A stretch of 34,300 nucleotides of DNA. Source: Bacteroidota bacterium. Its GTDB lineage: Bacteria; Bacteroidota; Bacteroidia; Flavobacteriales; Flavobacteriaceae. The position numbers and the translations under genes are program-made. The notes under the pieces were generated by a model, which was not told where the DNA came from, did not search any database, and saw only the letters and a list, made by a program, of their open reading frames with translations. Positions 14,936 through 16,461 of the stretch are shown here, piece by piece; the first letter of the stretch is position 1, and the number at the start of each line of letters is the position of its first letter. The stretch covers positions 1 through 34,300 of the forward strand of contig JAACDD010000108.1 in NCBI GenBank assembly GCA_009937085.1. Direction: 5' to 3'.

Positions 14936-15877
14936 TTACATGACAAATTTGCCTGAAATCGATTCGTTATGATGTACATTATACATGACTTCGGCAAACA
15001 ATTGAGCGCAGCTCAATACTTTAATTTTTTTACTTTCTTTTTTTAATGGAATAGAATTGGTTACAATAAGCTCTGTAAGCATAGAAGCTTCAACACGCTC
15101 ATAGGCTTCGCCCGAAAGTAGCGGGTGCGTACATACTGCACGAACGCTCTTTGCACCTCGTTCCATCATAAGGTCTGCAGCTTTGGTAAGGGTGCCAGCG
15201 GTATCGACCATGTCGTCTACAAGCACTACATTCTTTCCTTTGACATCCCCAATAAGTTCCATGTGCGAAATGATATTCGCTTTTTTGCGCTGCTTGTAAC
15301 AGATCACCACATCGCTTTCCAAATATTTTGAATAGGCATACGCACGCTTAGAACCTCCCATGTCAGGAGAAGCGATTGTAAGGTTATCGATATTAAGTGA
15401 TTTTAAATAAGGTAAAAACAATGAGGATGCAAACAAATGATCTACAGGTTTTTCAAAAAACCCTTGAATTTGATCAGCGTGTAAATCCATTGTAATGATA
15501 CGCGTAGCACCAGCGGCTTCAAGGAGTTTGGCAATAAGTTTTGCGCCAATTGGTACACGCGGTTTGTCTTTACGGTCTTGTCGCGCCCAGCCAAAATAAG
15601 GCATAACCGCCGTAATGTGTCGTGCGGAGGCACGCTTGGCAGCATCGAGCATAAGCAACATTTCCATCAAATTTTCAGAAGAAGGATTGGTAGAACCGAT
15701 AATAAAAATACGTGAACCACGAACAGATTCTTCAAATGAAGGTTGAAACTCACCATCGCTGTAGCGTGAGAATAGCACATTCCCAAGCGGTATTCCATAA
15801 TACTTGGCAATGTCTTTTGCCAGTACCATACTCTGTGTACAGGCAAATATCTTCGATTCTAAAGTTGCTTTTCCCAT
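14936..15877 (-). CDS. prs: Ribose-phosphate pyrophosphokinase
   Basis: Family motifs are DLHADQIQGFF and the PRPP-binding loop VVLVDDMVDTAGTL. Length is 313 aa. Confidence 0.95.
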   Translation of the reverse strand: MGKATLESKIFACTQSMVLAKDIAKYYGIPLGNVLFSRYSDGEFQPSFEESVRGSRIFIIGSTNPSSENLMEMLLMLDAAKRASARHITAVMPYFGWARQDRKDKPRVPIGAKLIAKLLEAAGATRIITMDLHADQIQGFFEKPVDHLFASSLFLPYLKSLNIDNLTIASPDMGGSKRAYAYSKYLESDVVICYKQRKKANIISHMELIGDVKGKNVVLVDDMVDTAGTLTKAADLMMERGAKSVRAVCTHPLLSGEAYERVEASMLTELIVTNSIPLKKESKKIKVLSCAQLFAEVMYNVHHNESISGKFVM

Positions 15878-15943
15878 AGTTTTTATGCGGGTTGCAAATG
15901 TAGGAATTTATTTGAGGTAGTGAAGTTGTCAGCAGCATTTTTC

Positions 15944-15975
15944 TTGTGCTACAATAAAATTATTGGCTACATTTG
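15944..15975 (+). promoter_or_regulatory. Candidate Bacteroidota sigma-A promoter (TTG-N21-TAcaTTTG) upstream of the tRNA-Leu relic
   Basis: A TTG lies at 15944-15946 and TACATTTG at 15968-15975, 10 nt before the relic tRNA 5' end at 15986. The pattern matches the published Bacteroides -33/-7 consensus. No experimental support. Confidence 0.4.
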
Positions 15976-15985
15976 CCGTCCAATT

Positions 15986-16035
15986 GCCTTGGTGGCGGAA
16001 TTGGTAGACCTGCCTGCCGGCAGGCAGGCGCGCTG
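15986..16035 (+). pseudogene. Relic 5' fragment of tRNA-Leu(CAA): tRNA nt 1-24 and 25-30 separated by a 20-nt palindrome
   Basis: Positions 15986-16009 are identical (24/24) to 16309-16332. Positions 16030-16035 (gcgctg) match 16333-16338. Similarity ends at 16036. Confidence 0.75.
16009..16028. repeat. Perfect 20-nt palindrome cctgcctgccGGCAGGCAGG
   Basis: The sequence equals its own reverse complement, read directly from the window. It sits inside the tRNA relic, at the D-arm position. Confidence 0.9.
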
Positions 16036-16058
16036 AGTTGAATTGAAATGTTGAAATT

Positions 16059-16307
16059 GTGTATTGGGTTTATGCTATATCGAGCCTAAAATGTAACTAC
16101 ATTTATGTTGGTATGACCAAAGATGTAGGTGCTAGAATTGCAAGACATAACGCAGGCAAAGAAAAAACAACCAAGCCTTATGTTCCTTTTCAACTGATTT
16201 ATTCCGAAGTTTGCACTGGCAGAGTAGCGGCTCGGCAAAAAGAAAAATATTGGAAATCTGGTATTGGCAAGCAAAAGCTTCGCCAAATTAGAGACCAACT
16301 GAAATGA
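16059..16307 (+). CDS. Small GIY-YIG (URI-domain, COG2827/YhbQ-like) nuclease family protein
   Basis: The 82-aa ORF has YWVYAI ... NYIYVGMTKDVGARIARHNAG ... RQKEKYWK, matching the GIY / YIG / R / E-x3-K layout of stand-alone URI-domain proteins. It starts at GTG. Its TGA stop ends 1 nt before tRNA nt 1. Confidence 0.8.
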   Translation: MYWVYAISSLKCNYIYVGMTKDVGARIARHNAGKEKTTKPYVPFQLIYSEVCTGRVAARQKEKYWKSGIGKQKLRQIRDQLK

Positions 16308-16308
16308 T

Positions 16309-16390
16309 GCCTTGGTGGCGGAATTGGTAGACGCGCTGGATTCAAAATCCAGTTCTTTCGAGAGTGTGGGTTCGATTCCCACCCAAGGTA
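16309..16390 (+). tRNA. tRNA-Leu (anticodon CAA), type II with long variable arm, no encoded CCA
   Basis: A manual fold gives acceptor GCCTTGG / CCAAGGT (G1-U72 wobble) and a D-arm gcg-gaattggtaga-cgc. The anticodon stem is ctgga / tccag with loop ttCAAaa. The variable arm is ttctttcgagagt, the T-arm is gtggg-ttcgatt-cccac, and the discriminator is A. Total 82 nt. Confidence 0.93.
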
Positions 16391-16395
16391 CAAGT

Positions 16396-16435
16396 TATCC
16401 CCAAGAATAATTTATTGTTTTGGGGATAAATTTTT
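16396..16435 (+). terminator. Intrinsic terminator after tRNA-Leu
   Basis: A stem tatccccaa / ttggggata (16396-16404 and 16420-16428) is followed by aaTTTTT. Confidence 0.7.
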
Positions 16436-16461
16436 GAACTTGACATTCAAATATTTAACCA

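Follow-up and report, generated by a model that had tools for sequence, protein, structure and literature searches.

A GIY-YIG nuclease gene and a 20-nucleotide hairpin as an integrase-free selfish cassette in class II tRNA genes of Flavobacteriia

A 34.3-kb stretch of Flavobacteriaceae DNA (contig JAACDD010000108.1, positions 1 to 34,300; hereafter the window) holds one copy of what is, on well-supported grounds, a selfish cassette: a GIY-YIG nuclease gene and a hairpin that together colonise class II tRNA genes of Flavobacteriia without an integrase. Judged by comparison of related loci, these genes gain and lose a compact unit made up of hairpin, leader, open reading frame (ORF) and part of a tRNA; the host's own tRNA fragment is left behind as a hairpin-broken relic, and the whole tRNA allele is sometimes replaced. 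The window copy lies in the gene for tRNA-Leu(CAA), whose 5′ part, and possibly the entire gene, would have come with the cassette. An earlier note on this DNA had proposed that a selfish nuclease gene entered the tRNA gene between nucleotides (nt) 30 and 31 and that the 5′ portion of the tRNA was regenerated. The comparative data bear out the entry and, in essentials, the regeneration; the sharp junction falls, and several loci import a whole functional tRNA. The parts of the window copy, all on the forward (+) strand, are as follows.

15944–15975 (+): Bacteroidetes-type tRNA promoter, with the −33 TTG at 15944–15946 and the −7 box TACATTTG at 15968–15975
15986–16009 (+): relic of the displaced original tRNA-Leu(CAA) 5′ end, nt 1–24 (acceptor 5′ strand, D loop and most of the D arm), an exact copy of 16309–16332
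16009–16028 (+): 20-nt GC-rich palindrome (hairpin, HP), CCTGCCTGCCGGCAGGCAGG, which breaks the 3′ strand of the relic D stem
16029–16058 (+): remainder of the relic (tRNA nt 24/25–30, cgcgctg) and an A/T-rich leader, which the relics of relatives mark as a decayed anticodon-arm remnant
16059–16307 (+): gene for a predicted 82-amino-acid (aa), domain-only GIY-YIG nuclease, with a GTG start and the stop codon TGA at 16305–16307
16309–16391 (+): intact tRNA-Leu(CAA), called by ARAGORN and by Rfam (tRNA, 61 bits)
16392–16436 (+): terminator-like hairpin 3′ of the tRNA, an inverted repeat followed by ATTTTT

The exact recurrence of tRNA nt 1–24 at a distance of 323 nt, first pointed out in the earlier note, is confirmed (BLAST E 8e-9 against the whole window). 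It grows to 25 nt if the preceding T is counted (16308–16332 = 15985–16009), and BLAST found no third copy in the 34.3-kb window. Equally sound are the palindrome, a perfect 20-nt inverted repeat (CCTGCCTGCC/GGCAGGCAGG) whose pattern matched once in the window and not at all in 100 shuffles, and the gcgctg behind it at 16030–16035, which equals tRNA nt 25–30. The same arrangement can be read as a clean 20-nt insertion between nt 23 and 24 of the relic. The palindrome ends 30 nt upstream of the ORF start codon, and the stop codon ends 1 nt short of the intact tRNA, whose Rfam score of 61 bits compares with a threshold of 29. The insert measures 323 nt in all, and its sole gene is the 82-aa ORF.

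This arrangement recurs as a family trait, which disposes of the fallback reading of a one-off local duplication. A homologue scan in which each GTDB species was represented by a single genome yielded at least 540 relatives, of which the closest 80 loci were fetched (L numbers below denote loci), and a profile search of 1.84 billion representatives returned 1,587 clusters at E ≤1e-10. A class II tRNA gene (Leu-CAA, Leu-UAA, Leu-GAG or Ser-GGA) adjoins at least 78 of the 80 homologous loci, the enrichment beside tRNA genes that the selfish-gene proposal entails. Sixty-five loci have the window layout (5′-type), with tRNA-Leu(CAA) beginning just 3′ of the ORF; stop codon and tRNA are spaced by −1 to +6 nt in 43 of them, and 52 repeat the first 8 nt of the local tRNA upstream of the ORF. 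These tRNAs span seven acceptor types, and the duplication at other loci is thus of their own tRNA fragment, again as the proposal would have it. About 13 further loci form a mirror image (3′-type), in which the intact tRNA is followed by a terminator, the ORF and then a 3′ relic of the same tRNA, with the hairpin at the boundary of T stem and T loop or within the T loop. Duplication of the 5′ end, as originally described, therefore fits the 65 loci but not the mirror-image ones, which duplicate the 3′ part. The 3′-type hosts are Leu-CAA, Leu-UAA, Leu-GAG or Ser-GGA, all class II, and both types of cassette occur at the same orthologous tRNA. In L071, a hairpin-riddled 5′ relic (~1340–1440) lies upstream of an intact tRNA that has two 3′-type cassettes downstream, so both geometries have struck the same gene in one genome.

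The synteny rplY-prs-[cassette]-tRNA-Leu(CAA) is kept in 69 of the 80 loci, and other tRNAs are occupied at other loci. The family is widespread in marine Flavobacteria and the Flavobacteriia at large, and its carriers include the cultured Galbibacter orientalis DSM 19592, Algibacter luteus, Robertkochia marina and Salegentibacter chungangensis. Comparison across the family also corrects the extent of the relic. Similarity, which had been thought to end at nt 30, continues in the window as a weak anticodon-arm remnant up to about nt 37, and the relics of relatives end anywhere from nt 29 to nt 64, with the anticodon arm intact in L046, L015, L036 and L021. The boundary at nt 30 in the window is therefore a product of decay and not a junction.

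Cassette-free tRNA-Leu(CAA) alleles, which the earlier note had asked about, are the common state. Among 70 metagenomic loci anchored on Prs and with a detected tRNA-Leu(CAA), some 64 are clean, with no ORF, relic or hairpin (~92% of the sampled close relatives). Three are occupied (L094, L153 and L113), two hold 5′ relics with no ORF (L088 and L128, with L097 as a possible decayed third), and four have a different small non-coding element 3′ of the tRNA. In the closest empty relatives, L081 and L082 (Prs 91–92% identical), the tRNA starts at +110 from prs; the window relic starts at +109/110 from the prs start, the same position, and the three share the promoter stretch 'ggctacatttgcc'. The non-coding element is about 150 nt long and lies directly 3′ of tRNA-Leu(CAA) in L096, L101, L103 and L116, where it is reverse-complemented and ~85–330 nt past the tRNA start, and also in L071 (2330–2440). 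Its sequence includes '...ttttcaaa(a/g)cga...gggaa...', and its end is formed by a 14–15-nt direct repeat of the tRNA 3′ end (tcccacc.gaggtac); the tRNA-Leu(CAA) gene thus looks like a hotspot at which several small insertions have landed.

Promoter geometry tells which of the two tRNA 5′ ends is the older resident. The −7 box of Bacteroidetes tRNA promoters follows the consensus TAnnTTTG, and a single such box occurs in 15800–16400. In 41 of 52 5′-type loci it is found no more than 40 nt 5′ of relic nt 1, mostly at 10–12 nt, and the intact tRNA has one at such a distance in just 5 of the 52. At empty sites it precedes the tRNA within the same distance in 50 of 67, with the same modal spacing as for the relic. 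Since the relic and not the intact tRNA stands behind the promoter box, the relic is to be read as the original, displaced 5′ end, and the working tRNA must be transcribed through the cassette.

The strongest evidence on the direction of the event comes from four loci in which relic and working tRNA belong to different acceptor types.

L042: relic GCTCAAG, working tRNA GCCTTGG; 8 of the 11 nearest Prs relatives have GCTCAAG
L031: relic GCCGAAG, working tRNA GCTCGAG; the nearest Prs relatives L068, L019, L038 and L027 have GCCGAAG
L011: relic GCTCGAG, working tRNA GCCGAAG; 8 of the 11 nearest Prs relatives have GCTCGAG
L128: relic GCTCGAG, working tRNA GCTGGTG; L072 (Prs 100% identical) has GCTCGAG

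By these acceptor sequences, each relic is native to the host lineage, and it is the functional tRNA that is foreign. L128 and L072 share an identical Prs but differ in the state of the locus: L072 has the native tRNA and a 3′-type cassette, and L128 has a native 5′ relic with hairpin, then the foreign tRNA, with native sequence on both sides. The body of the foreign tRNA-Leu(CAA) in L128 and in L011/L049 (2250–2400) resembles the local tRNA-Leu(UAA) (gtggtggaattggtagacacgcagg), a likeness that points either to a change of anticodon or to a distant donor from which the gene was imported. The native tRNA copy of L011 and L049 breaks off at nt 43 and has no hairpin.

Turnover is visible in several other ways. 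Six loci hold tandem ORF pairs that are 85–99% identical at the DNA level, L034, L010 and L094 contain further arrays or half-decayed units, and solo relics occur in L088, L128 and L094, the last of which is also among the occupied loci. Contigs that encode the identical 83-aa protein P0081 have either one or two units of ~405 nt, a copy-number polymorphism within a population. Divergence of Prs and of the GIY-YIG protein is hardly correlated (Mantel r 0.11, n=68): hosts 3% apart in Prs can have ORFs 25–35% apart, and hosts 25% apart can have ORFs 16% apart. The pairwise Mantel test was used here in place of a plot of identity to the window against Prs identity, which proved uninformative as a test of vertical descent.

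The hairpin is the best conserved part of the unit and a core component of it, a weight that the palindrome had not been given before. The family consensus, CCTGTCTGCCGACAGGCAGG, is identical in 38 loci at tRNA nt 24/25, and the hairpin is found at this same position in nearly all 5′-type loci. Its mean pairwise identity is 96%, for hairpins extracted by a pattern that fixed only their ends and length, against 67% for ORF codon positions 1 and 2 and 48% for position 3. Directly 3′ of it CGCGCT is constant in almost all loci. Nearly every locus has a hairpin beside its ORF, and tandem arrays have one on both sides. Of some 100 hairpin half-site matches, roughly 90 are no farther than 200 nt from an ORF, and the others lie in intergenic DNA, as in the rplY/prs gap of L031. 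Additional hairpins occur in many relics, both 3′ of nt 9 and within the D loop, and include the compensatory variants cctacc/ggtagg and ccaacc/ggttgg; a second pseudo-tRNA in L042 has hairpins at nt 24/25 and in the T arm. The hairpin marks redundant tRNA copies, and among the loci examined no functional tRNA contains one. Over 39 distinct hairpins, 24 G·T pairs on the sense strand against 9 A·C mismatches hint that it is this strand that folds.

Outside the cassettes, the palindrome also behaves as a dispersed intergenic repeat, at about one copy per 30–40 kb of fetched flanks. Copies away from any tRNA or GIY-YIG ORF lie at L031 808–840, L019 ~796, L016 ~24, L065 ~37, L039 ~911 and L050 ~3320. 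A second, unrelated hairpin type (tcccgatag..tcgggat / ttccgatagttatcggaa) occurs in the D loop of some relics and replaces or accompanies the main palindrome (L003 ~1925–1945, the L088 relic and the L033 upstream region). L023 has a 17-nt unit (aggttgattctttaatt) repeated four times in tandem between hairpin/CGCGCT and the ORF start (~1890–1975). Two other roles for the hairpins were considered and rejected. As tiny introns of functional tRNAs they would not sit in truncated relics, and a hairpin-bearing copy is never the sole tRNA; as an intrinsic terminator the hairpin would need a T run, which does not follow it, and an essential tRNA lies downstream. Folding of the leader RNA gave a minimum free energy z-score of −1.5, with nothing beyond the hairpin itself that points to a special RNA structure.

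The predicted nuclease is reduced to its catalytic core. The 82-aa protein matches the Pfam family GIY-YIG (PF01541) at E 1.3e-15, with 57.9 bits against a cut-off of 22.6, over its whole length, and the chain ends about 15 residues past the catalytic Glu; neither Pfam nor an AlphaFold2 (AF2) model reveals a second domain or a linker. Residues Y5, Y16, R26 and E62, which correspond to the tyrosines of GIY and YIG, the conserved Arg and the metal-binding Glu, are invariant in 23 homologues and H30 nearly so. Homologues of 81–83 aa align from residue 1, so the GTG start of the ORF, as already proposed for 16059–16307, is right; gene callers chose an internal ATG that gives a 64-aa product (P0010). 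The model is confident (predicted local distance difference test, pLDDT, 96), with the topology E-E-H-E-H-H and a three-stranded sheet flanked by helices. Foldseek places UPF0213 protein BH0048 (PDB 1ZG2) as the top match at a template-modelling (TM) score TMq of 0.56, gives the highest TM scores to the Slx1 nuclease domain (TMq 0.59–0.67) and rates the I-TevI catalytic domain at 0.54. By sequence, the only relatives of solved structure are UPF0213 proteins (1ZG2 and 1YWL; E 3e-5 and 3e-4), and the protein is accordingly closest, in sequence and predicted fold, to UPF0213 and the Slx1 nuclease domain. The UPF0213/Slx1-like proteins (YhbQ group) have the same minimal GIY-YIG architecture, a form that Dunin-Horkawicz et al. 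(2006) termed ancestral (PMC1564403). UPF0213 genes are treated as ordinary, uncharacterised housekeeping genes, and none has been reported to lie in a tRNA gene, to pair with a hairpin or to be mobile. NCBIfam makes no family assignment (TIGR01453 reaches 15 bits against a cut-off of 56), and matches in PHROGs and PADLOC are insignificant. The ratio of non-synonymous to synonymous substitution rates (dN/dS) is 0.05–0.2 in the 13 homologue pairs with a synonymous divergence (dS) of at least 0.3, the mark of an ORF under purifying selection. A neighbour-joining tree, weakly resolved for so short a protein, sets most 3′-type proteins apart from 5′-type ones.

These data suggest how the cassette might be expressed and move. 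Insertion inside the tRNA gene would bring a replacement tRNA part, and sometimes a whole tRNA, and the cell would therefore keep a working tRNA-Leu(CAA); the displaced 5′ end would stay behind the tRNA promoter as the hairpin-interrupted relic. The cassette seems to have no promoter box of its own, and read-through from the tRNA promoter would yield a single RNA of relic, hairpin, ORF and tRNA. RNase P, cutting at tRNA nt 1 and thus 1 nt past the stop codon, would separate the mRNA from the tRNA. Movement would proceed by homologous recombination, with conserved tRNA sequence as homology arms and the nuclease as stimulant, a proposal that we hold with moderate confidence. On the model of the single-domain Ssn nucleases discussed below, the protein would probably recognise its cognate hairpin in single-stranded DNA (ssDNA) and cut next to it, rather than read a long duplex site. 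By limiting the homology between relic and tRNA to at most 24 nt and blocking a tRNA-like fold of the relic, the hairpin may stabilise the cassette. Repeated insertion or unequal exchange would give the tandem arrays, and decay of the ORF the solo relics. Taken as a whole, from the identity of the cassette through its expression and nuclease-stimulated movement to this life cycle, this is the account that we favour, and we think it somewhat likelier right than wrong.

Several points weigh against that account. A nuclease that depends on the hairpin does not by itself explain how an empty, hairpin-free tRNA gene is invaded, and the occupied allele retains an intact tRNA, with its escape from self-cleavage unaccounted for. 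Hairpins recur at stereotyped tRNA positions (9/10, D loop, 24/25 and T stem/loop), and these copies have unrelated flanks and no target duplication, which simple homing does not predict. The excess of G·T pairs was counted over related sequences rather than independent events. In the few less diverged pairs dN/dS rises to 0.3–0.7 (0.68 for the window against L002 and 0.54 for L001 against L002), values that come from very few substitutions. No relatives were found on IMG/VR viral contigs and essentially none on plasmids (one weak match, 36% identity, in Subdoligranulum), and no vector is therefore identified. A single old insertion that was then lost many times could produce some of the same presence/absence pattern. 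Finally, the SRM motif of the Ssn nucleases discussed below (HGTCWY..YYVSBRH..WNVSBRG..RNCYNB) has no match on either strand of the window or in the 80 loci.

There is a bolder extension of the favoured account, to which we would give somewhat less than even chances: nuclease and hairpin would be the autonomous and non-autonomous partners of a new bacterial mobile element. The bare GIY-YIG domain would recognise in ssDNA both its own hairpin and the hairpins of tRNA genes. Insertion into class II tRNA genes would then be directed by structure, with no integrase and with a replacement tRNA imported, and hairpins would be seeded at tRNA positions 9/10, the D loop, 24/25 and the T arm of every redundant copy.

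The best functional analogue would be the nuclease/hairpin pair of the Ssn family (cd10448; Chenal et al., Nat Commun 2025; PMC11893778). SsnA is a single-domain GIY-YIG protein of 94 aa that binds a hairpin repeat flanking its own gene; it cuts only ssDNA, in a strand-specific manner and upstream of the hairpin, and ignores double-stranded DNA and RNA (PMC11893778). The NTS/SRM hairpin repeats and the nuclease gene form an insertion sequence (IS)-like layout of repeat, gene and repeat, for which the authors hypothesised a mobile origin (PMC11893778). Like Ssn, the cassette encodes a lone GIY-YIG domain with no accessory domain (82 aa here, ~90–100 aa in Ssn) beside a conserved, oriented, hairpin-forming inverted repeat (20 nt here, 20–50 nt in Ssn) that has more copies elsewhere in the genome; the likeness was drawn from architecture and hairpin layout. 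Besides a hairpin of different sequence that lacks the SRM motif, the cassette differs in that its repeat is concentrated in tRNA relics, whereas Ssn repeats occur in hundreds of scattered copies, and the Ssn paper makes no mention of tRNA genes, duplicated tRNA parts, empty sites or Bacteroidota (PMC11893778). We rate the cassette as a selfish GIY-YIG element with an Ssn-like pairing of nuclease and hairpin in a new genomic niche and geometry. Full-text literature searches found no description of a tRNA-embedded GIY-YIG cassette; within that scope the earlier view that the mobility mode is undescribed stands, with Ssn as the nearest system (PMC11893778).

Classical homing is the first alternative to be weighed. 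Here the 82-aa protein, perhaps as an oligomer, would cut the duplex of an uninterrupted tRNA-Leu(CAA) gene near nt 24–30, and break repair would copy hairpin, ORF and tRNA part from an occupied allele; the sole role of the hairpin would be to spoil the relic as a target. GIY-YIG ranks among the classic folds of homing endonucleases, and Foldseek matched the I-TevI catalytic domain. Presence/absence polymorphism and co-converted tRNA flanks fit, as does the separation of most 3′-type from 5′-type proteins in the tree, as expected for different target positions. There is also a precedent in the Seg proteins of T4-like phages, free-standing GIY-YIG homing endonucleases of which SegB lies in the T4 tRNA gene cluster (PMC2330249). 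Seg genes, like the cassette, are GIY-YIG genes outside introns and at tRNA genes, show presence/absence polymorphism with co-conversion of flanks, and are inherited preferentially by gene conversion. Seg proteins, however, exceed 200 aa and have C-terminal DNA-binding domains. The cassette protein is a bare catalytic core of ~80 aa that lacks the architecture of catalytic domain, linker and DNA-binding domain of the I-TevI/Seg class and is nearer to UPF0213 and Slx1 than to I-TevI; and, unlike Seg genes, the cassette is bacterial-chromosomal, lies inside a rebuilt tRNA gene and has an obligatory conserved hairpin. Nor would the occupied allele be immune, since the intact tRNA keeps a complete and identical target. 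The 96% conservation of a fixed-sequence 20-nt hairpin goes unexplained, as does its recurrence at other tRNA positions and in intergenic DNA, and we regard this alternative as unlikely.

A domesticated, host-beneficial gene acting at the RNA level is improbable. It would have the nuclease and its hairpin-bearing, tRNA-like leader serve the metabolism or regulation of tRNA-Leu/Ser, as in processing, quality control or defence, with the duplication as a structural by-product and the patchy distribution as a sign of dispensability rather than mobility. The strong purifying selection in more diverged pairs, the exclusive association with class II tRNAs, the favoured folding of the sense strand (24 G·T against 9 A·C) and a promoter geometry that implies obligatory co-transcription with an essential tRNA would all suit such a gene, and a prokaryotic fusion of a Slx1-like domain to TrmH led to an earlier suggestion of a role in RNA metabolism (PMC1564403). 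About 92% of the sampled close relatives lack the cassette at the locus, single-domain SsnA neither binds nor cuts RNA (PMC11893778), and the hallmarks of selfishness are there: tandem arrays, relics without an ORF, foreign tRNA alleles and ORFs that are discordant with their hosts.

More improbable still is a single ancient tandem duplication of the tRNA 5′ region that trapped a host GIY-YIG gene and then passed by vertical descent with many precise deletions. Across many genera, 69 of 80 genomes have the cassette at the same prs-linked locus, recombination between the 24-nt direct repeats could remove it precisely, and the closest host pairs carry the closest ORFs. Against these stand a Mantel r of only 0.11, with host and ORF divergence discordant in both directions, and the two cassette types at one orthologous tRNA with other tRNAs occupied elsewhere. 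Relic and tRNA alleles also differ, with the relic the native one, and within one population the identical protein is found with either one unit or two.

The scar of an integrase-type island (an att remnant) or the leftover of a group I intron homing endonuclease is effectively refuted: integration with duplication of an end is classically seen at tRNA genes and some bacterial tRNA-Leu genes host group I introns, yet it is the 5′ end that is duplicated here, the insert is merely 323 nt long, and hundreds of genomes contain this compact unit. The cassette is flanked by serS, ribF, pth, rplY and prs and, beyond tRNA-Leu, by small ORFs and nfu, a housekeeping context with no integrase gene within at least 5 kb and no transposase or other recombinase gene nearby, in line with the integrase-free state first noted. 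With tyrosine-integrase islands and prophages the cassette shares a tRNA landing site, a gene kept functional by the carried copy and a direct repeat left behind. Islands, however, are kilobases long, bear an integrase and usually duplicate the tRNA 3′ end; the cassette is a 323-nt unit with no tyrosine or serine recombinase, a 5′ duplication (3′ in the mirror form) and a hairpin-broken relic. A group I intron was rejected as a candidate: the tRNA is uninterrupted, and Rfam at permissive E-values reported only tRNA for the window region and seven loci. Known introns, riboswitches and small RNAs were likewise ruled out, tRNA being the sole Rfam match above threshold.

If the favoured account is confirmed, the cassette would be a very small autonomous-looking unit of selfish DNA (~320 bp), in which a selfish nuclease needs no recombinase to colonise an essential tRNA gene and simply supplies the piece of tRNA that would otherwise be lacking. 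The family supplies hundreds of natural examples in empty, occupied, tandem and decayed states, some in cultured carriers, which makes the mobile-origin hypothesis for Ssn directly testable. Should nuclease and hairpin prove to be autonomous and non-autonomous partners, they would be genomic proof that Ssn-like pairs are mobile elements, with a mode of mobility that overwrites host tRNA alleles across genera. Replacement of tRNA alleles across genera is itself documented in these data and bears on tRNA evolution. As proposed for Ssn enzymes, so compact a nuclease, paired with a defined 20-nt hairpin, could also find use as a tool.

The family has consequences for annotation as well, as its relics could be mistaken for tRNA pseudogenes. 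Gene-calling errors recur throughout, either as truncation at an internal ATG (64 aa) or as N-terminal extension through tRNA relics and hairpins. By a heuristic regular-expression count, many called proteins have N-terminal extensions that are translated tRNA halves, T arms or hairpins, for example P0126 (MAELVDALDSKSS...GSIPARGT) and P0111. P0173 holds three hairpin-derived peptide repeats, DLSADRQA/MSADRQA/ISADRQA. At the other end of the window copy, the arms of the terminator-like inverted repeat (16392–16404 and 16420–16432) are 92% complementary, and the empty allele L085 has the same terminator 3′ of its tRNA.

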